Source: Nanobdellota archaeon (GTDB lineage Archaea > Nanobdellota > Nanobdellia > Woesearchaeales > GW2011-AR4). Taken from it: 64,000 nucleotides of DNA. Location of the stretch: the NCBI GenBank assembly GCA_038046385.1, contig JBBSWH010000011.1, forward strand, positions 56,731 to 120,730, written 5' to 3'. A program made the translations under genes and the position numbers. The notes under the pieces were generated by a model. That model saw only the letters and a program-made list of their open reading frames with translations, made no database searches and was not told where the DNA came from. Shown here piece by piece: positions 120 to 42,453 of the stretch. Each line of letters opens with the position of its first letter. The first letter of the stretch is position 1.

Positions 120-2228
120 TTATCCGTGGCCTCCTTTTTTAGACCCTCCTTTTTTAGCTATTTGGTATTTGGCATGCTCTAAAACTCCGCCCGGGCCAAG
201 AGGATCAGTAATAAATGGCCCCCCATAATGTCTTATTCCATAATCCCAACCAGGCTCTCTTTTAAGGGCATTTCTGGCTTTTTCAAAGCTGAAATTATTT
301 CTCATAGTAAAATCTATCAAAAATTTTGCAAGCCCTCTTGTAGATATATGTGGGAACGGATTTTCAGACCATTTATTTATTCCATCGGTAGTTTCATAGT
401 AAAGCATCCTCCCCCAGTGTATATAATCGTGATTTACCGCAGCCCTGTCAAAAGCTGGATTAAGGTGTGTTGGGGTCCTAATTTCGTCTCTTAAAGTTTT
501 CTCTTCTGTTTCCATGTCATATTTTCTAGAAATTTTTTGCTCGTCTTCCGGGGTTATTTTGGAAGGATTTCCACACCCAACTATTTTTCCATCATAAACT
601 GTTCCAATTTTCTTTTTTGCATTTTCATCTTCCCAATTATCGAAATCCGCTTCTGTGTAGTAAATTGGCCTGAACATTATTCTGGTTTTAAGGTCTTTTG
701 TATCAATTTTATCAAATGCATCCATAGATTGAGTTGAGTTTATTCTAAACAAGCCTGCAATGATATAATCCATGCTGGATTTTGAGTGCGGATGAAAGCG
801 CCCGTCCCTAAAATCATCCCTGTAAGCGTCTGTCTCGTTCGATATGAAACTTATCTTATCGAGAGGCTCGACATCCCCTATACCACCATCATGCACCCAT
901 TCATCAGGAACTTTTCTTATGTATTTTTTTAAGTATTTCTCCCCATATTTTCCTTTAACATTAATTCCTTTAGTGACCTTGTTATTCCAAACTTCTTCTC
1001 CCCCATCCTTTTCTTTTACTATTCTTATCATTCTTTCTTGCCATTTGTTCCTGCTTATCTCTGCCCACCACCTATCTGTCAATACATACCACCCGCCATT
1101 ATACTCAAAAACTTCCAGCGGCCAGTTGTTTTCATCTTTTCCGGCCTCAATTTCATCATCTCTTTTGAAGTCAGAATATTCATCCTTGAAATAAACTGCT
1201 TTCTGAATTTTTTTGCCATCTGGCCCATCAACTTTTTTTATTATATGGGGTTTTATTATTTTATAAGTATGCGCAAACCTGATAAACATTTCTTTTGGCT
1301 TAAACTCATCGGCTAATCCTTTGCCAGCTTCTCCCTTTAATATTTCTATAATCGTGGATATAGTATCCAATTTTTCTCCGTGGTTTAATTCTATTTCTTT
1401 AATTTCCTTAAAACTTTCCCTAAGAGTGGTCAATAATTGGGTTACAGGAGTTCTAATATTTGCCCCCATTCCAGAAGAAGAAGCGAAGTGGTCTGCTCTC
1501 GCCAATATAATTTCAAATTGAGTGGATACCTTCTCCATTTTAGAAGCACCAATTGCAACAATACTTTGCGGCCTGCCGTCTGTGAATGGAACAACTACGG
1601 GATTTGTATCAATATGCGGCAAAAATCCCAATGATCCTACTAGACTTTCCTTTTCTTCCAGAATTTTTTGGGCAATTTCTAAGTTAGCTATGTCCGGATC
1701 ATCTTTTTTCAAAGACCCTTCTCTTGCAATTTTTCCTTCTATTCTGTTCTTTGTTTGTTCTGCTTCTCTTATAATCTCTAAAATCTCCTCTTCAGTCATT
1801 GCAGATTTTTTGGTAATCTCAATAGTTCCGGTTTCTTTAAAAATGCTGGCCTCTAGTTTTGCAGCTTTACCCTCTTTGAAGTATTCTATTAACCTATATC
1901 TGTCAGTGAAAACATGATCGCCTGGTTTCTCTTTATATTCAAATCCTTCAGCTCCAAATAGCTTTTCTTCTATTTCAGTCCAATTGGCTTCAATTTCCTG
2001 CAAAACTTCTATTTTTTTGTCATTTTTTGTAAATAAATACTTATAGTTCTCCAAAAGGGGATTAATTTGATCTGTACTTTCTTTTGTGATATCTACCATT
2101 ACCCCTTCTCTTTTTCCAAATGTACTAGCCCAAATATCGTTAAGCCTGTTATGGAACCATTGATTTATTCTCTTGCCAATGGCTTGGGTTAATGTTCCTG
2201 CTTTGGTTTCTTTTGGTGGGTCTGTCAT
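120..2228 (-). CDS. hypothetical soluble protein (702 aa), distal gene of a 4-gene minus-strand operon; its C-terminal region shares an 'NPAFDR(R/A)A-VN' / 'HP..S.M.YIIAG' domain with the 873-aa membrane protein
   Basis: Long ORF with an 8-nt gap to the upstream gene; no recognisable catalytic motif; motif sharing seen by eye. Confidence 0.6.
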   Translation of the reverse strand: MTDPPKETKAGTLTQAIGKRINQWFHNRLNDIWASTFGKREGVMVDITKESTDQINPLLENYKYLFTKNDKKIEVLQEIEANWTEIEEKLFGAEGFEYKEKPGDHVFTDRYRLIEYFKEGKAAKLEASIFKETGTIEITKKSAMTEEEILEIIREAEQTKNRIEGKIAREGSLKKDDPDIANLEIAQKILEEKESLVGSLGFLPHIDTNPVVVPFTDGRPQSIVAIGASKMEKVSTQFEIILARADHFASSSGMGANIRTPVTQLLTTLRESFKEIKEIELNHGEKLDTISTIIEILKGEAGKGLADEFKPKEMFIRFAHTYKIIKPHIIKKVDGPDGKKIQKAVYFKDEYSDFKRDDEIEAGKDENNWPLEVFEYNGGWYVLTDRWWAEISRNKWQERMIRIVKEKDGGEEVWNNKVTKGINVKGKYGEKYLKKYIRKVPDEWVHDGGIGDVEPLDKISFISNETDAYRDDFRDGRFHPHSKSSMDYIIAGLFRINSTQSMDAFDKIDTKDLKTRIMFRPIYYTEADFDNWEDENAKKKIGTVYDGKIVGCGNPSKITPEDEQKISRKYDMETEEKTLRDEIRTPTHLNPAFDRAAVNHDYIHWGRMLYYETTDGINKWSENPFPHISTRGLAKFLIDFTMRNNFSFEKARNALKREPGWDYGIRHYGGPFITDPLGPGGVLEHAKYQIAKKGGSKKGGHG

Positions 2229-2236: not shown

Positions 2237-4111
2237 CTATGCTGCTCTGTCAATTAAATTATTATTCATCCCTAATCTTTTCGGCTGTAGACTTATAATC
2301 TGGGATGAAGTTTTCCCATCATCTTTGTTTGGTTGGCCATTGCCAAGAGAAGCAAATTGGTTGGGTTTCTGCGTTAAAAATACGCCAATTTGGTCAATAT
2401 AATCCTTTTTCTTTGATTCAATCTGTGCAAGACACCTTGTCGTTTCCGGCATAATAACCTCGCATATGTAGGAAAGCTCATGGAGTATTCTAAGCCCGGC
2501 AATATACTTTGCTTCTATTCTCTTTTTTACTTTTACTCCTCTCTCAGCCAGTTCGAGCGATACATAGCTTCCAAAACCGCTCCTTGTTATCGCCGCCGTG
2601 CTTGAATTATCCAGTATGCTGCCATCTGTTTTGGCAGCTCCAGAAGTTTTTGCTATGAACCCTTGCCAATCTCCCAGCCTTTTGGCAATTTCAGCCCCGG
2701 CTCTACGTTCCTTTAAGTCTTGCGTAACCTCGTCCAATAGATTTAATTTTGCCACAAGATCCGGGATTGTCAAAACCACATTTTCGGTTAAATTTTGAAA
2801 TTCCATTCTTTCATTTTCTAATTTTTTAATGAGCTGTTTTTTCTTTCTGTTCAATATTCTTAAAAATAATTCTTTGGCTTTTGTAGAAGAATCACCCTCT
2901 AGCATTAATTTTTTCAAATCAGCAAGTGCAGTAATCTTTTGCTGCTCAAGTTGCTTTATCCGCTGTTCAAAAATTTTTATAATAGTCTGCGCAGCAGGTT
3001 GCACTACTATTTCATAAGCGCGTCTTGTCAATTGCTGGTCAAGGTTCTCCAATTCATTTTCCCAGTCAACAGGAGCCTCGTGCTTTTTTTGTTCAAAGGC
3101 CTCCAAAACTCTTGCAAATTGCTCATTTCCAAACCTTTCCCTGACCATCCTTATGTAATTCTTGCCTTTCTTCAGGTTGTTGTAAAATTCATAGAATCCT
3201 TCCCAATTCCCTTGCGTTTCCACAGAGCGCTTGATGGCGTCTCTTGCCATTGTGAAAAATTGTATTTCTTGCATGTAAGTCAAGAGCCTTTTTATTTCCG
3301 GAGTTTTTTTCATTTCACTGACGAGATTTTCATCTTTAAAATACATGCTGAATCCTAAAAAAGAGTTTCTATCATACCTTGATCTGCCACCATTTATGAA
3401 CAAAAACCCCCTTTCTATGAAAAGTTGGATACCATAAGACATTATGTATGGCCAGCTTCTTATATCGTTGGTGCACCTGTTTAATTCTTCAACTTCTCTG
3501 TCGCTCAAGGAAACTATGGCCATTCTTAATATGTCTGCAGTTGCCTTATCGTGGATTCTGTCAACTTGCTTCATCAGTTCATCATAATGGGTTTTTACAT
3601 AAGCAATAACTAGTCGAGGATTTTCCAATAATTTTGCCATTGGCTGCAAAACAGTTCCTAAATCAGTTTTCCCTCTTTGTGAAAACCCTAACGACCTCAT
3701 CTCTTCTGCCAACTGACTGTCTAACTGGCTTATTTGATTTATTCTTGGATTTATTTCTGAAGCAAATTTATCATTGTCTTTCACCAAAAGATTATATGCG
3801 CTTAATCCAAGCCTTAATGCTATCCATTTTTTATTATATCTCTCTGTCAGTCCTATTCTTTTTCCGCTTGCCGCTATACTTAATGCGTTTTCTCCAGTTT
3901 CTTTATTGGCAAGAACCGATTCCCATCTTAATATTATGTCCCATCTATTGCTTATTTGCCAAAATTTGGCAAGAAACTGACTGTAACTTGCATCAAACTC
4001 TGCGAAAATGTCTCTTTCGACTTCACTCTTGGTACTTTTTCCTGCAAATATCATAGGAATCCATCCAAAAACCCTTCTTTTGTTTTCTGTCATTTTATTT
4101 GCTATGCTCAT
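2237..4111 (-). CDS. hypothetical protein (624 aa), predicted largely alpha-helical/coiled-coil
   Basis: Long ORF overlapping the upstream gene by 17 nt, suggesting translational coupling; heptad-like charged repeats (QLEQQKITALADLKKL...). Confidence 0.6.
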   Translation of the reverse strand: MSIANKMTENKRRVFGWIPMIFAGKSTKSEVERDIFAEFDASYSQFLAKFWQISNRWDIILRWESVLANKETGENALSIAASGKRIGLTERYNKKWIALRLGLSAYNLLVKDNDKFASEINPRINQISQLDSQLAEEMRSLGFSQRGKTDLGTVLQPMAKLLENPRLVIAYVKTHYDELMKQVDRIHDKATADILRMAIVSLSDREVEELNRCTNDIRSWPYIMSYGIQLFIERGFLFINGGRSRYDRNSFLGFSMYFKDENLVSEMKKTPEIKRLLTYMQEIQFFTMARDAIKRSVETQGNWEGFYEFYNNLKKGKNYIRMVRERFGNEQFARVLEAFEQKKHEAPVDWENELENLDQQLTRRAYEIVVQPAAQTIIKIFEQRIKQLEQQKITALADLKKLMLEGDSSTKAKELFLRILNRKKKQLIKKLENERMEFQNLTENVVLTIPDLVAKLNLLDEVTQDLKERRAGAEIAKRLGDWQGFIAKTSGAAKTDGSILDNSSTAAITRSGFGSYVSLELAERGVKVKKRIEAKYIAGLRILHELSYICEVIMPETTRCLAQIESKKKDYIDQIGVFLTQKPNQFASLGNGQPNKDDGKTSSQIISLQPKRLGMNNNLIDRAA

Positions 4112-6716
4112 CTTTTCCTTGCTGAAGTTTTATGCCTTCATTTAGTGTACCCATTATTTCAGCTGTATCTCCCTGGGTGCCCCTATCGTATAACCCTATT
4201 TCCAGATATTTTATTACATCCTGCATATCTTCAAAATTTCTGATGGACAGTGCTGGGATATACATGCTCATGCCTGCTGTAGAAACAGCTGGAAGCGTAT
4301 CCCATTTTTTCTTATTATTCCCTACAGCTTCCCACTTGTCGTCATAATTTTTTCTTCCGGCATATTTTAATATTCCAGTGTTAACCAATGCTCTCCTGTC
4401 AAATGCCGGGTTCTCTGTTGATTTTAAACCTGGAGTGAATTTTATTAATTTTTCATGTTCTTTATCAAGAACAAATTTGCCTTCATAGCTGAATTTTGGC
4501 ATAAATTCTTCCCTTCCCAAAAGGTTTGGATTGTCTTTTTTAGTTTCAAGCGCTTTTATATAATCACTTGCAAATTTACTGCTGTTCCTAAACCAGCCAA
4601 ACCTCATGTTTCTGATAAACCCTATCCAATCATGATTTATGTACTCCATCATGCTGTGAGGAGACTCCAGCAAATGCACTTTACCGGCAATAATCTCATC
4701 AGGATGCACTCTTCTTGGCCTTTTTCCTTCATATATATCCTCTAAAACCTCAAAATATTGATTAACTTCTAGCTTGTGCCCTTTCACTATACTTCCATCT
4801 GATAATCTGGTTCCAGGATCTACGAACTTATATTCATGCGCTGTAGCTCCATAAGGATTGCATTGATCTAATATTAGATATCTCCATGCCTTCAATACCA
4901 TATGGTTGCCATAGGCTTTAGCCCTATCGTTAAGAAGTGTATTGGAATTCTTAAGAATCTCTTTTGCCTTAGCTAATTTACTATTCTGGCGCTGTATCTC
5001 CTGTATAAAATTTTCATATTCTTTAGTTCCTGGCCTTATGGACCCTTTGATAATACCAACCATATATTTTTGAATTAATATTGCAGAGTTATTCAGCTCA
5101 TCACAAAATTTTTCAGTTGCCCTGAACAAACCAACCTCTTCATTTTTCCCACTTTCACTATTGTATATTATTCCGCCATTTCTGCAAGAATAAATCTCAT
5201 CTTCCAGTTTGTCAACATCCATATATATTGAACCAATCATTGGCTCCAAAGTTTCGCATACGTGCAAAGCCTGTTCGACTTGACCTTTCTTTACATTCCA
5301 GATGTAAAATCTTTTTAAGTAATTACTTAAGGAGAAAAAAATAATTAAATTTTCTCTAAATAAATCAGGCAGTCTATCTAAAGCTACTCTTTCTTTTGGC
5401 CATGCTTTTTTATTTATACCCGTTCTTGATTGTACCTCTCCTAATTTTTTTCTGAACATTTCCCATAAAAGTACTGAATATCTATCCTTTAGGTCCTTAA
5501 ATTTCCATTTCCTCTCAGCCCTGTTAACAGCCCAAACCCCTCCTCCCAGCAATAATAAAAGTATCATCAGGCTTAGTATCAGGAACCATTTCCATCCTAT
5601 GTCAAAGAATATTGATAGGATGATCCCTATCCCAAGAACAATAAGTCCCCAGTTGCCTATTTTATCTCCTGTTTCCCCGCCGAATTTTTTTGCAGCAAGC
5701 AGTCCTGCTATAGCGATAAGTATGAGCCACCAGTAGCTGAACATTGTTTTTGTAATTCCTTTGCTTTCCGGCCCGGTTATGCCTATTTTGCTGGCTCCTC
5801 CTCCTGCAGGGGCACAATCAATAGGGGTTATTGTGCAAAACACAGATCCAAGAGCTCCTCTGTATTCTGGAGCATCTGCCGTGACTGCTGCAGCGGCCCA
5901 TCCTACAAGTATTATTGCAATAATCCATGCAGTCCATTTGCTTGCATCACCCACTGTGCTTTTTAACGCATCTGCAAACAACATAACAAAGAAAACTTCA
6001 GCAACCTGAATAACTGCGCCAAGCGATGCACCTTCCCTTGCCATGCTTACAGCAAATACAAATGCCAAAGCATAGCTTACTTTGTCCATACCTCCGGTAG
6101 CACCTTTTAGGAGGTATCCTCTAAAGAAGAATGAGAATAAAACAAAGCTCGATATGAATACCCATATCCTGCCGTCTTTTGTGGTCAATATCCCATTCGA
6201 TCCAAACAAGAAAGCAATAAAATCCTGAACCATTCCTTGGCTCCACACCCATTGATTTCCTATTTTTACGGCAATTATCAGAGCGATTATAGCCAACAAT
6301 ATTCCATACCCGGTTTTTCCCTGAGGCGAGCCCAGTTTATCATTTACCTTCAGCAACCCCAATACAAAATACAGCACAACTCCAATCACAAACGCATTAA
6401 CTAAAACAACATACCAGACATAAGTTGCAAAGAACGTTCCAATTGCTCCAGTTTTCCAAATCAAGCCTTCTCTTCCGTTGAACCACGCAACCAGCAATGC
6501 AACTAAAACTATTATCATCCAGATTGATCCTTTTTCTTTGTCATTCTTGTCTGGAACAAGTATAGCCTGCAGGATAAACATTACAGCTCCGATAACTAAA
6601 GCGTTTATTATCAAATAGTACCAGGATGACATGCCAGTTGCAGCTGTCTGCGCAAATGCTAAAGGCACCATTAGCAAAGCCATTACAAGAATCCAAAATA
6701 GTTTATTCTTGCTCAT
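4095..6716 (-). CDS. large integral membrane protein (873 aa): N-terminal ~400 aa with >=10 hydrophobic helices plus a C-terminal ~450-aa soluble domain
   Basis: Hydrophobic N-terminus (MSKNKLFWILVMALLMVPLAFA...) and many TM-like segments; 4-nt ATGA overlap with the upstream ATPase gene; C-terminus shares an NPAFDRRALVN motif with the 702-aa protein. Confidence 0.65.
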   Translation of the reverse strand: MSKNKLFWILVMALLMVPLAFAQTAATGMSSWYYLIINALVIGAVMFILQAILVPDKNDKEKGSIWMIIVLVALLVAWFNGREGLIWKTGAIGTFFATYVWYVVLVNAFVIGVVLYFVLGLLKVNDKLGSPQGKTGYGILLAIIALIIAVKIGNQWVWSQGMVQDFIAFLFGSNGILTTKDGRIWVFISSFVLFSFFFRGYLLKGATGGMDKVSYALAFVFAVSMAREGASLGAVIQVAEVFFVMLFADALKSTVGDASKWTAWIIAIILVGWAAAAVTADAPEYRGALGSVFCTITPIDCAPAGGGASKIGITGPESKGITKTMFSYWWLILIAIAGLLAAKKFGGETGDKIGNWGLIVLGIGIILSIFFDIGWKWFLILSLMILLLLLGGGVWAVNRAERKWKFKDLKDRYSVLLWEMFRKKLGEVQSRTGINKKAWPKERVALDRLPDLFRENLIIFFSLSNYLKRFYIWNVKKGQVEQALHVCETLEPMIGSIYMDVDKLEDEIYSCRNGGIIYNSESGKNEEVGLFRATEKFCDELNNSAILIQKYMVGIIKGSIRPGTKEYENFIQEIQRQNSKLAKAKEILKNSNTLLNDRAKAYGNHMVLKAWRYLILDQCNPYGATAHEYKFVDPGTRLSDGSIVKGHKLEVNQYFEVLEDIYEGKRPRRVHPDEIIAGKVHLLESPHSMMEYINHDWIGFIRNMRFGWFRNSSKFASDYIKALETKKDNPNLLGREEFMPKFSYEGKFVLDKEHEKLIKFTPGLKSTENPAFDRRALVNTGILKYAGRKNYDDKWEAVGNNKKKWDTLPAVSTAGMSMYIPALSIRNFEDMQDVIKYLEIGLYDRGTQGDTAEIMGTLNEGIKLQQGKDEHSK

Positions 6717-7852
6717 AGTAATTTAGCGACCTCATCAAGCATTTTATCATCAATCTCATCAAACTCATATCCAAGAGAAGTCAGTTTAATCCACAAGCGA
6801 AGCACATTATCAGTAAAGCAGAATTTGTTTCCGTTCTTGTAAATAATATCAGTCTGTATCAGCCTTTCAATAACGCTTTTTGTAACAGGCGCGCTTCTGT
6901 AGATCTTCTTTGCAATGTCAGTTAATCTTAATTCATCGTTTGCAACAACCTTTAGGATTGTTTTAAGAAGCGTTTGACCACGAGCCCTGTTATAATAATA
7001 GTTAAGCGAGTCATTGCAGTAATTGTAAAGTGGATTGTTCTTCTGCAGAAGTTCTATCAAAAATGCCTTTCTAGAATTCTTTATTTCTCTAAACCTTTGA
7101 GAAACAGCAATCATCGCATAATAATTACCATTGCATAAATTGAATATTTCTTCGCTTGATCCGGCATCTATCTTGCCGGCATTCTCTTCGATAAGCAAAA
7201 TAGATTCCTCTTTTTCAAGATTTTTCATCTCGTAGCATTCGAACTGCTTAAGTGAATGAAGAGACTCTTTTACAGCAGAGCTTGCTGCAATATAAGAAAC
7301 ATTGTCTGAGCCAAAGTTAATCAAAGAAAATACATCTTTTATCTGCGAGAAATTATTCATATCAAGAAGATTCTCTATATTGTCCCAAACAATAAGAAAT
7401 TTTTTCTTTGAATCCCTTCCGAGTGCATCTGCAAACCCGAATGCATTTTCAACAATCAGTTTTTGATTTGGCTTTATCTTAAGAAGCTCGTTTTCAACTG
7501 ATTTTATCAAAGAAAAAGCAGAAGAACTATTTAACTCCCCTTCGAGTTTTACAAGATTGTCAAGAACAAGAAATTTTTTGTAATCTTTAGGTGATTTTTT
7601 TAAAAAACTAAAAGCAACATTTCCTATATACTCAACCGAAAAATTCTCTGGATTAAGACTTATCTTGGAAAAATCAACATAAACAGGAACAACGTCTTTT
7701 ACATTTTTGATATGGTTCTTGATAATAGACGTTTTTCCGCATTTCCTTGGACCGAGAAGAGCTATATGCTTTCCTTCATTTTTCTTAAAATTGTTTGTAT
7801 TGGTGTCTAGCAAATTCCTGTAGAAACTCCTCTTTACGTTGCTGTCGACCAA
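6713..7852 (-). CDS. archaeal AAA-type ATPase (Arch_ATPase family P-loop NTPase with C-terminal DUF234-like winged helix)
   Basis: Walker A 'LLGPRKCGKTS'; Walker B-like 'FLIVWDNIE'; C-terminal wHTH-like 'KSVIERLIQTDIIYKNGNKFCFTDNVLRLWI'. Confidence 0.75.
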   Translation of the reverse strand: MVDSNVKRSFYRNLLDTNTNNFKKNEGKHIALLGPRKCGKTSIIKNHIKNVKDVVPVYVDFSKISLNPENFSVEYIGNVAFSFLKKSPKDYKKFLVLDNLVKLEGELNSSSAFSLIKSVENELLKIKPNQKLIVENAFGFADALGRDSKKKFLIVWDNIENLLDMNNFSQIKDVFSLINFGSDNVSYIAASSAVKESLHSLKQFECYEMKNLEKEESILLIEENAGKIDAGSSEEIFNLCNGNYYAMIAVSQRFREIKNSRKAFLIELLQKNNPLYNYCNDSLNYYYNRARGQTLLKTILKVVANDELRLTDIAKKIYRSAPVTKSVIERLIQTDIIYKNGNKFCFTDNVLRLWIKLTSLGYEFDEIDDKMLDEVAKLL

Positions 7853-8166
7853 TACTTCTCCGTTATACCATTTGGGCTATATACTTAATGATATAAAAAC
7901 ATTTCGCTTATGATTTTATACATTTTGGTATATTATTCTTAAATTAATATACCTTTTTGTATAATTAGTATATAAATGTTACGGAAAAGAATGGGCTATA
8001 GATTTAATTCTACTAATTGGTATATATTCTTTTTGGTATACTATCTAATTTTACGAGTGATTTTTGTAACTACTTTAAAATGATTACAAAATCGAAAGGT
8101 TTATATACACAAATCCAAACTGGAGTAGTATATTACACTACTAAGTAGCATAAACGTTGGGGCGTT
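7853..8166. promoter_or_regulatory. divergent promoter region between the ATPase operon and the A1-RHH array
   Basis: three 'ttttggtata' direct repeats; TATA-like 'tttatatac' ~60 nt upstream of 8167. Confidence 0.35.
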
Positions 8167-9072
8167 ATGGCTGAAGAGCACAAAGAACCAAAACTAGAAG
8201 ATATTGTAAAAAATAATCATAAGCTAGATAGCCACGCGTCTGAACATAAAGAAGAAGATCATGATAATCACAAAGAAAAACCAAAAAGTTCTATTGACAA
8301 AGTAACTGATGAAGTTCTGGATGCTGGAAAATTTCTTGGGTCATTTGCAGCAGGAATGTCTTTTCCGTTCATGTTTTCTGGTCAGGCAAGAACAAATGCA
8401 ATGATTAACGCTTATCCTCTTGCAGCAGGATCAACTGTTGAGGACAAAATGAGGGGCAAGCCGATAAATCCTGTAAAATCAATGAAAGAATCACTTGTAG
8501 GAACTTTGATGGCAAACCCGCTTGCCAGTTTGCTGGGTTACATAAATGTAGTAAGGGATTCCGTTACTTCATATGCAGGAACACTGCCGGGCGCAGGAGC
8601 TGCTGTCGGAGCGCTTGCAGCAGGCCAGGGAATTTTTGTCGGCACTTACATGGCTATTAACCACGTTGTGCAGAACATGAGCTTCAAAGGGCTTTATGAC
8701 AAAATGAAGACCAGCTATTGGACTGCAATAAAAAACACATGGAAATATGTTCTTCCATTAAGCATGTGGAACGTTCTTTATGTTTACAAGTTCGGAATAG
8801 TTGCGCAGATGGCATACGGTTCTTTGATGTCATTCCTCTTCAGATTAGTAGGTCCAAAGGAAAAAGATGCAAACCTCAAAAATTTAGGAAAAGCCCTAAA
8901 CCCTGCACCCTACATCGGAGCGACTGCAAGCGTAACTGGAAAACTAGTAAAAAACACAGTCAAAGGATTTTACGATTCAATCTATGCAATAGGATCTTCT
9001 CTAGGTGATCTGTACAAATCAACGCCAAAAGCAGCAGCGCCAGCTCCGGCAGCAGCAGGAGCGCACCACTAA
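8167..9072 (+). CDS. Gly/Ala-rich amphipathic protein A1 (301 aa) with a charged His/Lys/Glu-rich N-terminus and a conserved C-terminal tail '...LGDLYKSTPKAAAPAPAAAGAHH'; paralog of 10062-10904
   Basis: ORF; ~100-aa C-terminal block almost identical to A2; hydrophobic G/A-rich segments. Confidence 0.65.
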   Translation: MAEEHKEPKLEDIVKNNHKLDSHASEHKEEDHDNHKEKPKSSIDKVTDEVLDAGKFLGSFAAGMSFPFMFSGQARTNAMINAYPLAAGSTVEDKMRGKPINPVKSMKESLVGTLMANPLASLLGYINVVRDSVTSYAGTLPGAGAAVGALAAGQGIFVGTYMAINHVVQNMSFKGLYDKMKTSYWTAIKNTWKYVLPLSMWNVLYVYKFGIVAQMAYGSLMSFLFRLVGPKEKDANLKNLGKALNPAPYIGATASVTGKLVKNTVKGFYDSIYAIGSSLGDLYKSTPKAAAPAPAAAGAHH

Positions 9073-9250
9073 AATGAAACAGAAACTGAGCATCACAATG
9101 GACAATGAAGCAGTTCGTGATATTGAGCAGTCTATCAAGTCTGGAAAATTCAGAAACAAAAGTCATTTTGTTGAATATGCTGTAAAAAAACTTTTGGAAG
9201 AAGAAAAAAAATCAGAAGAAAAAATAATAATGGAATACCAATGAGCCTAG
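9060..9250 (+). repeat. direct repeat unit 1 (A-tail + RHH gene), ~80% identical to 9895-10075 and partly to 10855-10905
   Basis: 'gcagcagcgccagctccggcagc' occurs three times; the RHH ORF is duplicated. Confidence 0.7.
9074..9244 (+). CDS. ribbon-helix-helix (CopG/Arc/MetJ-like) small DNA-binding protein, copy 1
   Basis: MKQKLSITMDNEAVRDIEQSIKSGKFRNKSHFVEYAVKKLLEEE: beta-strand then two helices, typical RHH; starts 1 nt after the A1 stop. Confidence 0.7.
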   Translation: MKQKLSITMDNEAVRDIEQSIKSGKFRNKSHFVEYAVKKLLEEEKKSEEKIIMEYQ

Positions 9251-9906
9251 AAAACAAAGTTGAGGACAAGGAAAGCAAAAGCTTTGCGAAAAAGGCATTT
9301 AGGCTTGGATTCAATGTAGCTGCCGCTGCAGCAACGACTGCATTGAGCATGGCAACAGTCGGAACCGTAGGTCCAATTGTAGGCGCAGCTTTTGCAGGCG
9401 GAAGCATGATTGGGCATTTGATAAAAGGAAAGCCATTGTACGAATCAACAGTTGATGCTTTGAGAACTTATACTGGAGTAAACGCAGTAATCTGGCCAAT
9501 AGTTGCACTGGGCAACGCAACATTTCCGTTAATTTCAAACGAAACAATAATTGGAAAAGCTGCAAGAACATTGTATGCATCAACCTTATACAACGCTGCA
9601 TTTGTAGGCGCTTTCAGGGGAGCAACACATCTTGTCGATAATTACCTAAATCCAGTTGGAATTGTTAAATCAATCAAAGATAATTTCTATAATGAATGGA
9701 AAAGAATAGGGCTTGGATTCCTGCCAGGATATGCTCTTGATGCAAACGGAATCACAAATATAATGGGCTTGCCGACATTTGCTCTAAACGCGTTCCCTCT
9801 AGGATTGTACAATGCAATAAAACCAACTCCAATTGCAAAGAAATCATCTCATTCAAACTACTCTCCGGGCTATTCAACGCCATCGATGTCGCCGCATCCA
9901 GCCTAA
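9241..9906 (+). CDS. Gly/Ala-rich amphipathic protein B (221 aa), compositionally related to A1/A2
   Basis: ORF overlapping the RHH1 stop (ATGA); charged N-terminus then an A/G-rich hydrophobic core (AAAAATTALSMATVGTVGPIVGAAFAGG). Confidence 0.6.
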   Translation: MSLENKVEDKESKSFAKKAFRLGFNVAAAAATTALSMATVGTVGPIVGAAFAGGSMIGHLIKGKPLYESTVDALRTYTGVNAVIWPIVALGNATFPLISNETIIGKAARTLYASTLYNAAFVGAFRGATHLVDNYLNPVGIVKSIKDNFYNEWKRIGLGFLPGYALDANGITNIMGLPTFALNAFPLGLYNAIKPTPIAKKSSHSNYSPGYSTPSMSPHPA

Positions 9907-9907
9907 A

Positions 9908-10069
9908 ATGAAACAAAAGCTAAGCATCACAATGGACGAAGAAACAGTTCACGATATTGATAATTCTATTAGATCTGGGAAATTCAGGAACAAAAGCCAT
10001 TTTGTTGAATATGCTGTAAAAAAATTATTGGAAGAAGAAAAGATAATTCTCAAGGTGGAAAATGGCTGA
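9908..10069 (+). CDS. ribbon-helix-helix small DNA-binding protein, copy 2 (paralog of 9074-9244)
   Basis: MKQKLSITMDEETVHDIDNSIRSGKFRNKSHFVEYAVKKLLEEEK; ~80% nucleotide identity to copy 1. Confidence 0.7.
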   Translation: MKQKLSITMDEETVHDIDNSIRSGKFRNKSHFVEYAVKKLLEEEKIILKVENG

Positions 10070-10904
10070 AACTGAAAAAATTCCACTAGAAGAACATGGG
10101 AAAGAGAAGAAGGAAGAAAAAAAGAAAAAAGGCACGCTTGAAAATGTAATTGATGAGCTTTCAGGCTTCGGAAGAAAAGCTGTTGCAATAGGCGCAATAG
10201 CAGCAATGCCTCTTTCATTCCTTCCTTTCGCGCCTTCACATGTCCCAAGGGCAGCAGTTACAGCATATGGATACGCTGCCGGCCGCGCAACAGCAAACGT
10301 GATGCAGGAAAAGCCTGCACTGGAGAAGCTTGTCAAGGTCGGAACAATAGGGGCAATAAATTCAGTGCCGCTTGCAGCAGGTTTCACAGCCCTTAACATG
10401 CTTGAAAAAGCCATGGAGCCGGTTTATGGCGGATTAGCGGCAAAAGCCGCAAAAGTTGCAGCATACGGGCTTATACAGATACCTACAGTCACAACTTTGC
10501 GTAATGCAATGGACTACGGATTAGGAAAAAAATTCAGAGAGAATTTATTGCCAAGCATAAAAAACACTTTCAAAACTTTGATAATACCTGGAATTTTCAA
10601 TGTTCTTTACATATCAAAATTTGGGCTGTTTCCTCAGATGGCTGCTGCTGCTGTTTTTAGTTACCTTGTCCAGCTTACAGAATCAGTAAGGGTAGGGAAA
10701 GGAAGTTTCAAGAATCTTTACAAATCAATTAACCCAGCCCAATATATCAGGGCAACTTCCAGCGTAACAGGAAAACTTGTCAGGAATTCTACCAAAGGAA
10801 TATCTGACGCAGTCTCTGCCATAGGCAGTTCTCTCAATGATTTGTACAAATCAGCTCCAAAAGCAGCAGCGCCAGCTCCGGCAGCTGCAGGAGCGCATCC
10901 TTAA
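10062..10904 (+). CDS. Gly/Ala-rich amphipathic protein A2 (280 aa), paralog of A1 with the same C-terminal tail 'KSAPKAAAPAPAAAGAHP'
   Basis: ORF overlapping the RHH2 stop; C-terminal 100 aa alignable to A1. Confidence 0.65.
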   Translation: MAETEKIPLEEHGKEKKEEKKKKGTLENVIDELSGFGRKAVAIGAIAAMPLSFLPFAPSHVPRAAVTAYGYAAGRATANVMQEKPALEKLVKVGTIGAINSVPLAAGFTALNMLEKAMEPVYGGLAAKAAKVAAYGLIQIPTVTTLRNAMDYGLGKKFRENLLPSIKNTFKTLIIPGIFNVLYISKFGLFPQMAAAAVFSYLVQLTESVRVGKGSFKNLYKSINPAQYIRATSSVTGKLVRNSTKGISDAVSAIGSSLNDLYKSAPKAAAPAPAAAGAHP

Positions 10905-11939: not shown

Positions 11940-12329
11940 CTATGGTCCAATGTAAACAACGTTTTTTAACCCTTTAAAATGCCGGTCTCCGCTTATTATA
12001 TAACTTTGTAATTCATTTTGTTTGGATATAAGGATAGAGTCAATTAAACCAAAATCTTTGATATTTTCTCTCATTTTATGTTTTATATCTGAGGCATCCA
12101 ACCAGTTGGTAATCAACACAGGCAAAATAACAGAATTTTTTTTTACAGATTTGTAAATTCTGCTAAAATCTATTCCTTTTCTTAAACAATAACTTTTTAA
12201 CTCAGAAAGGCAGCACTCCATTGTTATGAATTTATTGTTTTTTTGAAACAATTTTCTTAATACTTGCCCCTGTTCTGTTCCAATAAGATACTCTATCCAC
12301 CCATACGTATCAATTATATAAATCACCAT
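11940..12329 (-). CDS. vapC: PIN-domain ribonuclease (VapC-like toxin)
   Basis: 'IYIIDTYGWIEYL' acidic PIN start; 129 aa; overlaps the upstream AbrB gene. Confidence 0.7.
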   Translation of the reverse strand: MVIYIIDTYGWIEYLIGTEQGQVLRKLFQKNNKFITMECCLSELKSYCLRKGIDFSRIYKSVKKNSVILPVLITNWLDASDIKHKMRENIKDFGLIDSILISKQNELQSYIISGDRHFKGLKNVVYIGP

Positions 12330-12538
12330 AGGTCTTCATGTTCATCTTTATCTCTTTCAAATCTCGGCATTCCTTTGAGAATACCAAAAGCATCTACTCT
12401 TTTTTCTTTCTCTATTTCTACTTTTACAATATCGCCTTCATCTATATCTTCCTGCCTTACTATGTCTTTTGGAACAATCAATGCTAATGAATTCCCCCAC
12501 CTTTTTATCTTTGCTTCAGCCATGACCATTTGTATCAC
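12323..12538 (-). CDS. vapB: AbrB/SpoVT (MazE-like) antitoxin (VapB)
   Basis: 'AKIKRWGNSLALIVPKDIVRQEDIDEGDIVKVEI' swapped-hairpin motif. Confidence 0.75.
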   Translation of the reverse strand: MIQMVMAEAKIKRWGNSLALIVPKDIVRQEDIDEGDIVKVEIEKEKRVDAFGILKGMPRFERDKDEHEDLW

Positions 12539-18587: not shown

Positions 18588-19099
18588 TTTATTTTTGCGT
18601 ATAAGTAAGCATCAATATATTTGCCGTCTTTGCTGCAATGTTTTCTCAACAGCCCTTCTTTTTTGTATCCGTTTTTTACCAGCACCCTGGAAGATTTTTT
18701 GTTGAATGAAAACACAGTTGCATAAATTCTGATTAATTTTAAATTATTTAAGCCATAATCTGTCACAAGATTTACCGCTTTTGTTATTATCCCTTTATTC
18801 CAATATTTTTTCCCCAGCCAGTATCCCATTTCTGCTTTATGGCATTCAATATGGTTGAATCCTATTCCCCCAACTACTTTTCCATTTATGTCGATTGCGA
18901 AATTAATCTCTTTTTTATTTTTTAATTTTGCTAATTTTAAATTATAATTTATCCACCATTTAGCGTCTTTTTTGGTAAATGGATGTGGAATCCTGCACGT
19001 ATGCCTGTAAATATCAAAATCATTGACATTTTCTTTTAAAGATTCTTCATCGCCTTTTTTATAAAGCCTGATTACAAACCCTTTTCCTTTCAGTTTCAT
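18584..19099 (-). CDS. GNAT-family N-acetyltransferase (RimJ/RimL-like)
   Basis: ~170 aa; GNAT-like core 'WLGKKYWNKGIITKAV'; overlaps neighbours by 4 nt. Confidence 0.6.
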   Translation of the reverse strand: MKLKGKGFVIRLYKKGDEESLKENVNDFDIYRHTCRIPHPFTKKDAKWWINYNLKLAKLKNKKEINFAIDINGKVVGGIGFNHIECHKAEMGYWLGKKYWNKGIITKAVNLVTDYGLNNLKLIRIYATVFSFNKKSSRVLVKNGYKKEGLLRKHCSKDGKYIDAYLYAKIK

Positions 19100-20868
19100 T
19101 TTCTTCTGATAAAATTGCTTAATGTAATCTGCTCATCTTTGTTTGCGCTTAAGTAAATGACCTGGCCTTCCTTGCTGCCCGACCTGTAAATAGAGATGCC
19201 TTTGCATCCAAGCTCATGCGCCATCATGAATATTTTTTCAATATCTTCAACTTTGGCATCTTTTGGCAGCGTAACTGTTTTTGAAATTCCATTGTCTACA
19301 TACGTTTGGAATGCAGCCTGCATTTTTACGTGCCATTCAGCTTCAATGTCGCTTCCAATAACAAAAATGTTTCTTATTTCTTCCGGAATCTCCTTTATAT
19401 TTTTTATAGACCCTTCCCTGTTTATTTTTTCAATTATTTCTTCTGTATAAATGCCGGAATCAGCAAGCTTTTCCTTCAGCTGCCTGTTGAAATAAATCAG
19501 GGTCTTTCCTTCTGCCGTGCTCCTGTTATAGCTTAATGCAAACAGCGGCTCGATTCCGCTTGACACATCTGCAATAATGCTTATAGTGCCGGTTGGCGCG
19601 ATTGTTGTTCTTGTTGCATTCCTTAATACAGCGTGATTTCCCTTAAAATGCCTGCTTTTTTTATTGTAAACGCTTTGATTCCATGCAGGAAAAGCGCCCC
19701 TTTGCCCAGCAATAGCTACAGAAGAATTATCTGCTTCATTTGAAATGAATTTCATAACCTTTTCAGCAGTTTTTAATGCTTCATCTGAATCATAAGCGAT
19801 GTTCATCTTGATAAGCATGTCTGCAAACCCCATCACTCCGAGGCCAATTTTTCTGTTTTGCTCTACGAATTTTCTGTTTGCCTCAAGAGGATAATTGCAC
19901 ATGTCAATAACATTATCAAGGAAATGCACAGCAGAACGGACAACTCCCTTTAGCCTTTCAAAGTCTACAGTCCCATCTTTGACAAAGTTGCTTAAATTAA
20001 TGCTTCCCAGGTTGCAGGATTCATAAGGCAATAATGGCTGTTCTCCGCATGAGTCTGTTGATTCAATTGTTCCAAGTGCTGGCGTTGGATTGCTTTTGTT
20101 GATTGTATCAATAAAAATAACTCCGGGGTCTCCGTTAAGCCATGCATGTTCGCATAATATCCTGAAAATCCTGCTAGCGCTTTCTTTTTTTACAAACTTT
20201 TTGGTTCTGTAATTTATTAGATTGTAATCTTTGTCTTTGGCGACTGCATTAAGGAATTTGTCAGTGACTGCCAATGAAATGTTGAAATTTGTAAGTGTGT
20301 TCTCGCGGCTTTTTATTGTTATGAATTCCTCAACATCAGGATGATCCACATTCAGGATGCCCATGTTTGCTCCCCTTAAAGTGCCTCCCAATTTAATCTG
20401 GCCGGTTGCTGCGTCAAATACTTTCATGAATGATACTGGACCGGATGTGAATCCTGCGCTTTCAATTATGTCGCCTTTTGGCCTTAAGTTAGAGAAGTTA
20501 AATCCGGTTCCTGCGCCTGTTTTGTGGATTAAAGCAGAATCATGCAGCGTCATGAATATAGAGCTTATGTCATCTTCTATCGGAAGCACAAAGCACCCGG
20601 CCAGCTGCTGCAGTTTTCTGCCTGCATTTATCAGGGTCGGGGAATTAGGAAGAAAATCAAGCGAAGCCATGAGGTTGTAGAACTCTTCTTCAGCCCTCTT
20701 TATGTTTTTTTTCTGGGATTTGTATTTTGCATCAGCCGATGCTACGTTTTTTGCAACCCTCCTGAACAGTTTTTCAGGCGTTTCAATTATCCTTCCCTTA
20801 TCATCGCGCTTCAGGTATCTCTGCTCAAGAATCATCAATGCATTCTTCGATAAATGTGAGTGCTTCAT
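19096..20868 (-). CDS. nrdJ: class II (adenosylcobalamin-dependent) ribonucleotide reductase, short form without ATP-cone or C-terminal Zn ribbon
   Basis: '[14 protein letters not shown]', 'NSPTLINAG', '[23 protein letters not shown]' and '[10 protein letters not shown]' (catalytic Cys/Asn) align with the long NrdJ at 23378-25966. Confidence 0.85.
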
Positions 20869-40118: not shown

Positions 40119-40295
40119 ATGAGTATTCAAATAAGAATAACGGTATCGAAAGAGATCAACGAACTTCTAGAAAAAGTATCAAAAAAATTAGGCAAGAAAA
40201 AATCAATGCTTGCCCGTGAGTTAATGGAGCAGAAGCTTTACGATCTTCAGTTAATACAAAAAGAGCTCAACAGCATGGATAAAAATGACAAGTAA
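40119..40295 (+). CDS. ribbon-helix-helix (CopG/MetJ-like) regulator heading giant-protein module 1
   Basis: 'MSIQIRITVSKEINELLEKVSKKLGKKKSMLARELMEQ'; the ORF track starts earlier at 40089. Confidence 0.6.
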   Translation: MSIQIRITVSKEINELLEKVSKKLGKKKSMLARELMEQKLYDLQLIQKELNSMDKNDK

Positions 40296-42453
40296 AAATT
40301 TCAGAATTTTTTCAAAAAAAGCGCAGCTTGCAATATTTATGATAATTGCCGTTGTATTGATAATTGGCGGAGTTGTGTTTTTCACGCTGACAAGCGAAGA
40401 GGAAAAAACAGCTGAAGCAGAAATCATGATAACTGAAAGTGTTCCAATTGAATTTGAACCTGTGAAGAAGTTTGTTGAGGACTGTTTGTACGCAACAAGC
40501 GTGGAAGGGCTTGAGCTTATCGGGGAACATGGAGGATATGCGAGCCTTGATGAAAACAATCTGAACGCAGAAACTTTTGCAGTAAATATCAATAATCCAA
40601 CAGAAAGCGACGCTGTTCTGTTTGCAAGCGACTCTAATTTAAAAATTCCTTACTGGAATTATTTGAAATCGGCAAACAGCTGCAAAGGAAATTGCGTGTT
40701 TGCAAGCAAAAGGCCGAAATTGTCAGGATCTGGAAATTCAATACAAGAAAATTTGCAAAGATATGTCGATGCAAAACTAAGTTCATGCACTGATAATTTT
40801 AAAACATTCAAAGAGCAGGGATATGCAATAACTGAGAAATCAAAGCCAAAATCAAGTGTTGTGATAACACAAGACGATGTTGTTATAGGGCTGGATTATG
40901 AATTAAGCATAGAAAGGCAGGATTCTTCATCGTCTCCAAAGAAGTTTGCAACAAGAGTCCCTATCAATCTGCAAAGAGTATACGAGCTTGCGACGAATAT
41001 AACTAACTTAGAAATACGGCACAATTACATAGAAAAACATGTGCTTAATCTCATTGCAGCATTTTCTGGTGTTGATAACAATAAACTGCCGCCAATGTCT
41101 GAGATGCAGTTTAAGTTCGGGAGTAATGTAGGGTGGCAAAAAACGCAAGTTAAGAATAATGTTGAAAATGTTCTTCTGTCATATATTCCTTTATTCCAAT
41201 TAGACAGTACGGCAAACTATGAAAGAAATGTATTTGACACAGAATTGGCGCAAAGATTATACGATTCAACAATAATCCCGATTGCAGATGAAAAATTCAA
41301 AGATCTTGAAACCCATTTTTCATATCTTGACTTCTGGCCAATGTATTTTAATTTAAACTGCAATGGAGAAAATTGCAAGCCAAATTCCGCAAATTCATTG
41401 ATTTCGTTTTTGGGGGTGCAGGACTACAAATTCTTTTACGATTTATCTTTCCCTGTTCTTGTGCAGGTTCAGGATCCCCTTGCACTGAACGGAAAGGGAT
41501 ACACTTTCAATCTTTTCCTTGAAGGGAATATAAGGAACAATGAGCCGCTGAAAGCGGCTTATGATCCGCTTGAAATAAGCTATGAGTCTGAAAAATCGTT
41601 GCTTTGTGACTCGAGGAATAGTGGAGAGGTTAAGGTTAATGTTCTTGATTCTTCGCAGAAGCCAATACAAGACGCTCAAGTGGTATACACTGTAGGTGAT
41701 GAGACTTGTTTCATTGGCACAACAGATGAAACTGGAACTGTCAAAGAAAAATTCCCGATTGCGGCAGGCGGAGCAGTAAGCGTTTCAAAAGAAAACTTCA
41801 TTGGCAAGTATGTTGATTTTGATGCTCAGCTGGATGCTGATTCATCATTAAGTGTTAAACTAAAGCCGATAACAACAAAAAACATTATTGTTAGGAAAAA
41901 AAGCATTGTCAAGACGCAGGATGGCTGGGAATTTGTAAACACTCCAGCTGACTTGACAGCGAAAGAATCTGCAACTATCTCACTTACGAGGGTGAATGAC
42001 AACGGAGAGCTGGATTTCTCATCAGCCGCGCAATATACCGGACAGCAGACAGAAAAAAGCACAATTGAAATTGCCCCTGGCAATTATGAAGCAGACATAA
42101 CTCTTTTGCTGAATGAAAAAATTGTGATTCCGGCGCAGAGAAAATGCCCTTGCGTGCTGTGGACCGGGATTTGCGCGAAAAGAGAGTGTTATGACCTTCC
42201 TGAAATAGATTTCAGCAAAGGCGCTGCAGCAGGAAGCGAAAAATTCCCTTCAGGCGGCTTGAAGGCAAAAATTTCAATAAGCCCGGAGAATCTGAAAGAT
42301 TCTAACACAATTATCCTTTATGCTGTCAGTGTGGACCTTTTGAATGTTCCACTGGATAAAAGGGATGTTGAAGACGCAAATGAAATAGGAAAAGTCGAGG
42401 AATACTCAACAACATATCAAACGGCATTAACTCCGGAGTTCAAAAATGGATAA
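40285..42453 (+). CDS. membrane-anchored extracellular protein (722 aa), N-terminal signal-anchor; paralog of 49821-51728
   Basis: 'KKAQLAIFMIIAVVLIIGGVVFF' anchor; 'VKKFVEDCLYATSVEGLELIGEHGGYASLDEN' alignable to the paralog. Confidence 0.7.
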   Translation: MTSKNFRIFSKKAQLAIFMIIAVVLIIGGVVFFTLTSEEEKTAEAEIMITESVPIEFEPVKKFVEDCLYATSVEGLELIGEHGGYASLDENNLNAETFAVNINNPTESDAVLFASDSNLKIPYWNYLKSANSCKGNCVFASKRPKLSGSGNSIQENLQRYVDAKLSSCTDNFKTFKEQGYAITEKSKPKSSVVITQDDVVIGLDYELSIERQDSSSSPKKFATRVPINLQRVYELATNITNLEIRHNYIEKHVLNLIAAFSGVDNNKLPPMSEMQFKFGSNVGWQKTQVKNNVENVLLSYIPLFQLDSTANYERNVFDTELAQRLYDSTIIPIADEKFKDLETHFSYLDFWPMYFNLNCNGENCKPNSANSLISFLGVQDYKFFYDLSFPVLVQVQDPLALNGKGYTFNLFLEGNIRNNEPLKAAYDPLEISYESEKSLLCDSRNSGEVKVNVLDSSQKPIQDAQVVYTVGDETCFIGTTDETGTVKEKFPIAAGGAVSVSKENFIGKYVDFDAQLDADSSLSVKLKPITTKNIIVRKKSIVKTQDGWEFVNTPADLTAKESATISLTRVNDNGELDFSSAAQYTGQQTEKSTIEIAPGNYEADITLLLNEKIVIPAQRKCPCVLWTGICAKRECYDLPEIDFSKGAAAGSEKFPSGGLKAKISISPENLKDSNTIILYAVSVDLLNVPLDKRDVEDANEIGKVEEYSTTYQTALTPEFKNG

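Follow-up and report, generated by a model that had tools for sequence, protein, structure and literature searches.

The 64,000-nucleotide stretch analyzed here (called the window throughout) lies on contig JBBSWH010000011.1 of a Nanobdellota archaeon of the Woesearchaeales. It carries a compact array of five genes, all on the forward strand, in which three large proteins (A1, B, and A2) alternate with two small ribbon-helix-helix (RHH) proteins (RHH1 and RHH2). The positions of these genes and of the associated features are given in Table 1. An initial annotation of the sequence had proposed this alternating five-gene layout, and its coordinates hold. It had also described the genes as packed by 1-nt gaps or ATGA overlaps, which is correct for three of the junctions: A1 and B are each followed by a 1-nt gap before the next RHH gene, and the RHH1 stop codon shares an ATGA with the start of B. 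The RHH2/A2 junction is different, with an 8-nt overlap (ATGGCTGA) of stop and start.

Table 1. Features of the array locus and of the divergent operon (positions within the window)
Feature	Positions	Strand	Description
A1	8167-9072	+	301 aa; predicted membrane protein, core A subfamily
RHH1	9074-9244	+	56 aa; minimal ribbon-helix-helix, R2 class
B	9241-9906	+	221 aa; distant paralog of the A proteins
RHH2	9908-10069	+	53 aa; minimal ribbon-helix-helix
A2	10062-10904	+	280 aa; accessory paralog, A' subfamily
Upstream element TGTAACTACTTT	8065-8076	+	conserved columns in the 8-locus alignment
BRE/TATA-like element AAAGGTTTATATA	8095-8107	+	conserved columns in the 8-locus alignment
Candidate RHH operator	8124-8150		immediately 3' of the TATA box; composed of three heptad half-sites: AGTAGTA (8124-8130), CACTACT (8136-8142, inverted), AGTAGCA (8144-8150)
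TTGGGG, Shine-Dalgarno-like	8157-8162	+	5-10 nt upstream of the first start codon
TATACC-N4-GGTATA boxes (16 bp)	7864-7879, 7880-7895, 7917-7932, 7948-7963, 8009-8024, 8025-8040		ATPase-proximal
P-loop ATPase with C-terminal winged helix	6713-7852	-	379 aa; first gene of a four-gene operon
873-aa protein	4095-6716	-	about 11 strongly hydrophobic segments
624-aa protein	2237-4111	-	no hydrophobic segments
702-aa protein	120-2228	-	no hydrophobic segments

Homologs of all five genes were found in matching order in other genomes. The ratios of nonsynonymous to synonymous substitution rates (dN/dS), computed against the related metagenomic locus L001, were 0.14 for A1, 0.09 for RHH1, 0.14 for B, 0.22 for RHH2, and 0.37 for the A2 slot; the flanking ATPase and thioredoxin reductase genes gave 0.07 and 0.02, respectively. 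Given the conserved order and dN/dS values of 0.09 to 0.37, the array genes are not chance open reading frames (ORFs), and they are real, tightly coupled, and under purifying selection.

The architecture of the array was then compared by classifying ORFs with profile hidden Markov models in nine species-level genome loci, three loci around a close homolog, and 32 metagenome contigs. With R standing for an RHH gene, the common arrangement is R-A-R-A'. Variants include R-A-R-A'-R-B'-A3 (loci L005 and L010), R-A-R-A'-B (L011), X175-R-A-R-A2b (L004 and L009), and A-R-B-R-A' or A-R-B-R-A2a (the window, L001, and L042). Each of the 11 loci compared has a member of the A subfamily, and at least six accessory subfamilies supply the genes in the remaining slots. 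The last slot illustrates this exchange: the window and L001 hold different paralogs there (43% identity), while the neighboring genes are 84 to 98% identical. The RHH proteins fall into positional classes, R1 (MKHKLSVSLD...) preceding A and R2 (MKQKISITID...) preceding accessory genes, and the array of the window carries R2-class copies only. In L042, a 34-aa R1 remnant (MNRLTLNLDKRIVHRIVSSLSQCFMKNSAEGQDG, positions 1422 to 1526) lies between the promoter and A; it keeps the strand and helix 1, has lost helix 2, and retains the ATGGCTGA overlap with the A gene. Since the window is devoid of R1 and L042 holds a decayed copy, R1 has been lost in the lineage of the window. Among the 52 distinct RHH genes, 51 overlap the start of the next membrane protein gene, and in 27 of these the overlap reads ATGGCTGA. 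A3-type and some B-type paralogs have no RHH gene, and neither does a stand-alone superfamily member in a housekeeping context have one adjacent to it. In a sub-lineage represented by L004 (positions 5296 to 5811; also L009, L025, and L035), the first gene after the promoter encodes a Gly-rich hydrophobic protein of about 175 aa (MAEEGGLEKKLKGYNES...) that matches neither the A nor the B profiles at E <= 1e-3.

The array occupies one locus per genome, with conserved flanks, in nine species-level genomes and many metagenome contigs, and its synteny holds across genomes whose A orthologs are only 40 to 60% identical. Downstream of it lie a thioredoxin reductase gene and usually a PIN/AbrB pair and a leucyl aminopeptidase gene. 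The locus is chromosomal, and neither an integrase nor phage families were found in the window. These comparisons describe the array as a vertically inherited operon of Woesearchaeales-type DPANN archaea. The RHH-interleaved cassettes, the swapping of accessory paralogs, the homogenization of C-terminal tails, and the operator described below all appear to be undescribed.

The assignment of the small genes to the RHH family, also made in the initial annotation, is borne out by an AlphaFold2 (AF2) model and Foldseek, with sequence profiles matching below their cut-offs. The two proteins are 80% identical over their full length, as had been estimated, and 87% identical over 45 aa, with 86% identity over 139 nt at the DNA level. 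RHH2 narrowly misses the Pfam RHH_1 cut-off of 20.5 bits (19.7 bits, E = 8e-4), and RHH1 has no Pfam match. The NCBIfam models of CdrS, ParD, and NikR match the RHH proteins at E = 7e-5 to 2e-2 (7e-5 to 6e-3 for RHH1), in all cases far below their cut-offs. The RHH2 model (predicted local distance difference test [pLDDT] score of 83) has an extended segment at residues 1 to 10 and helices at residues 11 to 23 and 29 to 42; together these make up a domain of about 45 aa whose N-terminal strand is followed by two helices. All nine of its Foldseek matches in the PDB were RHH proteins (ParD2, ParD1, DinJ, and CdbA), the best with TM-scores of 0.66 to 0.72 and root mean square deviations (rmsd) of 1.7 to 2.3 A; none had a significant E-value because the domain is short. 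Across loci, the RHH proteins range from 46 to 66 aa, and the residues past about position 45 are few and not conserved. All 20 of the sequences listed have Lys2, Lys4, and Ser6 in the N-terminal strand, and the GKFRNKSH loop is likewise invariant among the RHH proteins. Judged from the model, the interleaved proteins of 46 to 66 aa are bare RHH domains and nothing else.

Autoregulatory RHH repressors such as CopG, Arc/Mnt, omega, and the N-terminal domain of ParD are likewise strand-helix-helix domains of about 45 aa with a G-x-F/Y-R-N/S-x-S loop, and the best fold matches of the array proteins are ParD RHH domains. As with those repressors, a palindrome of short repeats lies at the operon's own promoter. 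Unlike CopG/Arc-type repressors, the array proteins are encoded by two or three genes in one operon, and every such gene is translationally coupled to one for a membrane protein; they also have no C-terminal toxin-binding or effector domain and score below the curated RHH_1, ParD, and CdrS cut-offs. CdrS is a minimal archaeal RHH protein co-transcribed with its presumed target gene. The CdrS-ftsZ2 operons thus resemble the array in placing a minimal archaeal RHH protein alongside a presumed target, and CdrS is the top NCBIfam match of RHH1 (E = 7e-5). Membership in the CdrS family (NF058555) was nevertheless rejected, as the two scores, 22.7 and 15.1 bits, fall short of the cut-off of 100, and so was a CdrS-ftsZ2 context, as the locus has no ftsZ or other division gene.

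The initial annotation had suggested a search for an RHH operator at positions 7853 to 8166, and a conserved palindrome was indeed found there, at the core promoter. The promoter elements are common to all arrays. In an alignment of eight loci, their consensus consists of an upstream element (TGTAACYAYTTT) followed by a BRE/TATA-like element (AAAnnTTTATATA), and we take positions 8095 to 8107 of the window to be an archaeal transcription factor B recognition element (BRE) and TATA box. The palindrome that follows reads GTAGTAT-N4-YACTAC(T) across loci, with a third half-site (AGTAGTAC). The Shine-Dalgarno-like TTGGG is invariant in all eight loci, and its final G is present in six of the eight. 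One genome only, L007, has an additional GC-rich, self-complementary segment (GCGTGCGAGTTTGCTCGCACGC..., 7790 to 7852) located after TTGGG and before the start codon of its first RHH gene. The 64-kb window contains no other good match to the palindrome, and each array locus has a single copy. When metagenomes were scanned with the 27-nt motif, 32 contigs were recovered, and in 29 of the 30 that extend far enough downstream to be informative, an R/A array follows directly.

Because the arms of the palindrome are invariant in the eight aligned loci and its 4-nt spacer varies, it is more readily understood as a site for protein binding than as a hairpin in RNA. A leader RNA element was rejected: the leader has no match in Rfam, the invariant arms show no covariation, and the first arm mostly precedes the expected transcription start. 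In most loci, this arm falls between the TATA box and the expected start, an interval that is the usual site of archaeal repressors. The heptads also recall the operators of omega, which are built from heptad half-sites in mixed orientation. We infer from these sequence features that the RHH proteins bind the heptad palindrome.

The RHH proteins could also be mainly something other than DNA-binding regulators. Each could be a co-translational partner, for instance an assembly or targeting factor for the membrane protein encoded next, or its frame could be kept chiefly as a leader for translational coupling. The 51 of 52 RHH stops that overlap a membrane protein start would suit such a role, as would the placement of R1 before A and of R2 before accessory paralogs, and several near-identical copies are hard to explain by regulation alone. 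We consider this explanation quite improbable all the same: a mere leader ORF would need neither dN/dS values of 0.09 to 0.22 nor an invariant GKFRNKSH loop and invariant Lys2, Lys4, and Ser6, R1 proved dispensable in this lineage, and the conserved palindrome sits at the classical position of an archaeal repressor site.

We then turned to the three large proteins. A1 and A2 share 38% identity over 259 aligned residues (E = 1e-31). The relationship between A and B is invisible to BLASTP, and comparison of the A-family and B-family profiles with hhalign gave a probability of 97.4% (E = 1.5e-11, 181 columns), so A1, B, and A2 are all paralogs. The 42 homologs of A1 all come from DPANN metagenome-assembled genomes (MAGs) or unnamed metagenome contigs, and among the 69 homologs of B all organism-named ones are from Woesearchaeota or Nanoarchaeota/Nanoarchaeia; every organism-named A or B homolog belongs to a Woesearchaeota, Pacearchaeota, or Nanoarchaeota/Nanoarchaeia MAG. 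A B protein identical to that of the window is annotated on a 303-kb contig of a Nanoarchaeota MAG. An exhaustive search of 1.84 billion representatives with the A-family profile returned only 110 clusters at E <= 1e-3. The eight distant clusters that were read share a D/N-H/Y-L-I-K-N-K-S/T-F/L-K/R-G...K-x-N-Y-W motif, and most of them terminate in P-x-P-A-H/Y. Source names were sought for 10 clusters, and the three that were named are Woesearchaeota, Nanoarchaeota, and one Methylococcales bin. The last of these, P0152, is a distant superfamily member on a 6-kb contig of a Methylococcales bacterium MAG, either mis-binned or a rare transfer beyond DPANN. With a distribution almost confined to Woesearchaeota/Nanoarchaeota MAGs, the A/B/A2 superfamily is, as far as sequence comparison can tell, a DPANN-restricted group of membrane-type paralogs.

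A1 has a charged N-terminus, four Gly/Ala-rich segments, an amphipathic C-terminal helix, and a tail ending in PKAAAPAPAAAGAHH. The charged N-termini and Gly/Ala-rich hydrophobic cores noted in the initial annotation are upheld, the cores being moderately hydrophobic: the glycine plus alanine (G+A) content of A1, B, and A2 is 21 to 24%, and their Kyte-Doolittle peaks reach about 1.0 to 1.7. In A1, four peaks of 0.97 to 1.46 are found at about residues 50 to 74, 111 to 129, 133 to 168, and 195 to 228. The AF2 model of A1 is all-helical, with block-mean pLDDT values of 73 to 88 over residues 61 to 210, and strongly amphipathic helices (residues 37 to 62 and 253 to 289; hydrophobic moment of 0.45 to 0.6) flank the core. 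Polar residues are conserved within the helices (N77, D93, E108, Q154, H166, N202, and Q214). By AF2 and hydropathy, the proteins thus look membrane-inserted with flanking amphipathic helices, in keeping with the membrane insertion proposed initially. Secretion as effectors, also proposed, is unlikely since no signal peptide is evident in the large proteins, which were read by eye rather than with a predictor.

Few relatives of known function emerged. Foldseek with the A1 model found no PDB match at E <= 1e-3, and the A profile had no match among PDB sequences. PADLOC and PHROGs returned no defense or viral family, and together with Pfam and NCBIfam no toxin or defense match, for A1, B, or A2; no Pfam family recurs in the B family. 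Matches to DUF5518, V-ATPase subunit K, Paxillin, and PurH were dropped as compositional because they were single, weak, and not common to homologs. Against BFVD, the sole match of the A1 model was M1I2L4, a 147-aa viral protein, over 150 columns with a target-normalized TM-score of 0.76, an rmsd of 3.2 A, 9% identity, and E = 0.16.

The only known family touched by these proteins is Mpv17/PMP22 (PF04117; gathering score of 27 bits), and the link is borderline. A1 matches PF04117 at residues 168 to 206 with 20.6 bits (E = 4.5e-4). Among A-family members, 27 of 30 match at E <= 0.01 (best 2.7e-8), and 8 of the 10 orthologs tested score 27.0 to 34.1 bits, at or above the cut-off, with alignments that always cover profile positions 2 to 43 of 62. 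Aligned by hhalign to vertebrate MPV17 (16 sequences from a search seeded with human MPV17), the A family reached a probability of 33.7% (E = 4.4e-4), the 35 aligned columns being in register with the Pfam match; the sensitivity of this comparison is limited by the low diversity of the MPV17 alignment (effective number of sequences, 1.9). The B family gave nothing in the same comparison. The NCBI annotation already names some A orthologs "Mpv17/PMP22 family protein". Our literature search found no paper linking Mpv17 or PF04117 to archaea or DPANN; an apparent mention of "Mpv17" in a phycodnavirus resulted from the virus name MpV1 standing directly before a citation numbered 7. The initial annotation had named homology to a known structural family in a conserved context as the evidence that would speak against its own proposal; the context is conserved, whereas the sole family link is the borderline one to Mpv17/PMP22.

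Members of the Mpv17/PMP22 family have four transmembrane helices and a C-terminal PF04117 motif and form non-selective channels of 1.4 to 1.8 nm; for MPV17, Sym1, and Pxmp2, oligomeric non-selective channel activity is known from bilayer experiments (PMC6767901). Like human MPV17, mouse Pxmp2, yeast Sym1, and plant PMP22, the A proteins are small, helical, and Gly/Ala-rich with four moderately hydrophobic segments, and the motif ...KG..K..YW...K..WK....P....N is found in the same register in both groups. Human MPV17 has four hydropathy peaks of 1.17 to 1.70, compared with 0.97 to 1.46 in A1, at a similar G+A content, and in both proteins the motif lies between the third and fourth peaks. A1 is therefore predicted to have the four-helix topology with the motif near the C-terminal pair. 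The archaeal proteins differ in being longer (220 to 300 aa versus about 176 aa for MPV17), in their charged N-terminal extension, C-terminal amphipathic helix, and Pro/Ala tail, and in their expected location in the cytoplasmic rather than an organelle membrane. Also unlike Mpv17/PMP22, they occur as two to four paralogs per operon, interleaved with RHH genes. An Mpv17/PMP22-like fold is plausible for the A proteins.

The same features could describe proteins that shape or protect a membrane without forming a channel, inserted as hairpins or amphipathic helices in the cytoplasmic leaflet in the manner of reticulons or stress proteins, with a compositional or convergent Mpv17 match. The moderate hydrophobicity, the very short external turns of the AF2 model, the strongly amphipathic helices around the core, and the borderline nature of the Mpv17 link would all be in line with this. 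The polar residues conserved inside the helices fit a specific polytopic fold better, though, and the PF04117 match recurs in the same register across many orthologs, so that we regard membrane shapers as an improbable explanation.

Membrane-type proteins next to RHH genes also bring to mind toxin-antitoxin or toxin/immunity cassettes, the latter of which the initial annotation had put forward; here, a pore-forming toxin would be restrained by the RHH antitoxin encoded just upstream. As in type II systems of the ParDE, CcdAB, and RelBE types, a small ParD-like RHH gene precedes and overlaps a larger gene, the RHH protein resembles the N-terminal domain of ParD in sequence and fold, and Mpv17-type pores could in principle depolarize a membrane (PMC6767901). 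The array departs from such systems in four defining respects: antitoxin tail, toxin family, indispensable antitoxin, and mobile distribution. The RHH proteins of 46 to 66 aa, with their short, unconserved tails, have no toxin-binding domain. The membrane proteins match no toxin, defense, or phage family, PADLOC and PHROGs included. The locus is single-copy, syntenic, and vertically inherited, with thioredoxin reductase and leucyl aminopeptidase genes as neighbors, rather than patchy or mobile. Finally, the cognate RHH gene can be lost: R1 is deleted here and reduced to 34 aa in L042, yet A1 remains intact and constrained (dN/dS of 0.14), although other RHH copies might cross-protect, and the A3-type, some B-type, and stand-alone paralogs do without any RHH gene. 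The toxin reading fails on these four counts, and we consider it highly improbable.

The C-termini of the large proteins revealed a further property of the array. The near-identity of A1 and A2 over their last ~100 aa, as first described, was overstated: the final 25 aa are 88% identical, the final 45 aa 76%, and the final 65 aa 72%, and beyond this the identity drops to the level of the whole protein. Over the last 14 codons, 13 are identical, mixed Ala codons included. The tail is Pro/Ala-rich and terminates in ...PAPA(H). Whereas the cores of A and A' within a genome are 29% identical and those of A orthologs between genomes 62%, the order is reversed for the last 45 residues, with 55% within a genome and 37% between genomes; tails of A and A' from different genomes are 35% identical. 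By this comparison, the tails of the paralogs evolve in concert within each genome, which indicates gene conversion, a shared genome-specific partner of the tail, or both.

The interpretation that we favor, while giving it slightly less than an even chance, is that positions 8065 to 10904 form an operon that is repressed by its own RHH proteins and encodes a membrane channel or scaffold of hetero-oligomeric type. The conserved A1 and the accessory B and A2 are made from overlapping, translationally coupled genes, and they most likely come together in a single hetero-oligomeric complex in the membrane. If Mpv17/PMP22 is taken as the analogy, this complex would be a wide, weakly selective solute channel; alternatively, it could be a membrane scaffold on which the common tail docks one shared partner. 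The RHH proteins would act as autorepressors at the heptad palindrome, which follows the TATA box and precedes the predicted transcription start, so that the output of the operon would be feedback-limited through them. The interleaving would have arisen when a cassette of one RHH gene and one membrane protein gene was duplicated in tandem, and the overlap between the RHH stop and the membrane protein start would hold it in place.

Several observations weigh against this interpretation. The hydrophobicity of the large proteins is only moderate, which leaves room for peripheral or hairpin insertion. The PF04117 score of A1 is itself below the Pfam cut-off, A2 and B have no PF04117 match, and no B-family member has one. 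Only 13 of 62 broad superfamily representatives match PF04117, with no other family recurring, and the broad superfamily profile is not significantly related to MPV17 by hhalign (probability of 1.2%). Among the handful of the 110 clusters checked by sequence or source name, no eukaryotic Mpv17 was recognized; all were of archaeal type, one of them binned as Methylococcales. Furthermore, several near-identical repressor genes per operon are not explained by regulation alone.

Upstream of the array, a four-gene operon is transcribed in the opposite direction. Its first gene encodes an ATPase with a Pfam match to AAA_14 (27.9 bits) and weak matches to HTH_45 and ATPase_2; no relative was found among PDB sequences. 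The 873-, 624-, and 702-aa proteins encoded next belong to no Pfam, NCBIfam, PADLOC, or PHROG family. The ATPase gene is divergent from and directly upstream of the array in L001, L004, L005, L006, L007, and L013, and together with the three large genes it is divergent in 6 of the 7 distinct related loci with upstream sequence. The ATPase is highly conserved across loci, and the three large genes are syntenic, fast-evolving, and weakly conserved.

Between the two operons, 6 of the 9 TATACC-N4-GGTATA matches in the window are concentrated within 177 bp (7864 to 8040), compared with 0.94 expected in the whole window. The boxes are also found in L001, L004, and L005, and L006, L007, and L013 have partial copies. 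L010, which lacks the ATPase yet keeps the array promoter, has no boxes, and they are therefore assigned to the ATPase side. They are probably sites for the winged helix of the ATPase itself or for another regulator. The first box lies between a TATA-like element and the TTG start of the ATPase gene. In L006 (7570 to 7760) and L013 (7640 to 7760), a hairpin-rich insert of about 150 to 200 nt separates the boxes from the array promoter and may be a miniature mobile element.

In another proposal, the array and the divergent genes for the winged helix-turn-helix ATPase and the three large proteins would be two arms of a single system of the envelope or of host contact, in which A and B proteins would serve as membrane adaptors docking these partners through their shared tail and the boxes would coordinate the two arms. 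The recurrence of the ATPase, the polytopic 873-aa protein, and the 624- and 702-aa genes in 6 of 7 loci, the conserved boxes in the intergenic region common to both arms, the concerted tails that suggest a common genome-specific partner, and the fast evolution of the large neighbors, as expected of surface proteins, are all consistent with such a system. On the other hand, L010 retains the full array and promoter with neither ATPase nor boxes, neither gene group belongs to a characterized system, and synteny alone may reflect low rearrangement in small genomes. We hold this proposal, which is compatible with the autorepressed channel or scaffold operon that we favor, to be doubtful. A bolder form of the channel hypothesis would make the A proteins genuine archaeal Mpv17/PMP22-type channels, forming, in the membrane of a DPANN cell that depends on its host, a hetero-oligomeric wide pore for the uptake of metabolites (e.g., nucleotides), with swappable accessory cassettes, RHH feedback, and a tail-docked partner, perhaps the ATPase or the large membrane proteins; as a whole, this is unlikely.

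Several other features of the window were recorded. On the reverse strand at 11940 to 12538, a 71-aa MazE/AbrB-type antitoxin (PF04014, E = 2.7e-9) overlaps a 129-aa partner, and the syntenic genes of L005 carry PF01850 (PIN); from its sequence, the pair looks like a conventional VapBC-like toxin-antitoxin system present in several related loci. A replication origin at 8 kb, which an ATPase/winged-helix gene beside repeated boxes might suggest, was rejected, since the ATPase has no Orc1/Cdc6 domains and the cumulative GC skew turns elsewhere, with its minimum near 38 to 40 kb, where gene orientation switches too. The rest of the window encodes ribonucleotide reductases, aminoacyl-tRNA synthetases, and very large proteins with no family match. 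Two ribonucleotide reductase large-subunit genes lie within 7 kb of each other on the reverse strand (19096 to 20868 and 23378 to 25966), one with an ATP-cone domain and one without. Large ORFs of 722, 1048, 988, 635, 2094, and 270 aa on the forward strand (40285 to 58823) have no Pfam family except for one fn3 domain in the 2094-aa protein, a pattern typical of the giant surface or host-interaction proteins of DPANN. The 64-kb window has no tRNA gene, and nothing in it matches an Rfam family at gathering score.

The genomes of DPANN archaea are tiny, most of their building blocks have to come from hosts, and a large part of their conserved genes lacks annotation. Against this background, the array is a conserved, constrained, and lineage-specific locus that offers a defined promoter, a candidate operator, defined regulators, and paralogous membrane proteins. 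Loss of MPV17 causes mitochondrial DNA depletion in humans, and there is continuing debate over the physiological substrate of this protein. If the homology to Mpv17/PMP22 is true, an organelle channel family would gain an operon-encoded prokaryotic relative and a genetic handle, with a bearing on solute transport in DPANN and on the question of the MPV17 substrate. The Mpv17/PMP22 label that automated annotation already attaches to some orthologs would then, if these are true channels, denote the first ones outside eukaryotes in an operon context. If the homology is false, the array would still encode a new DPANN-specific family of membrane proteins with an unusual cassette architecture and concerted tails.

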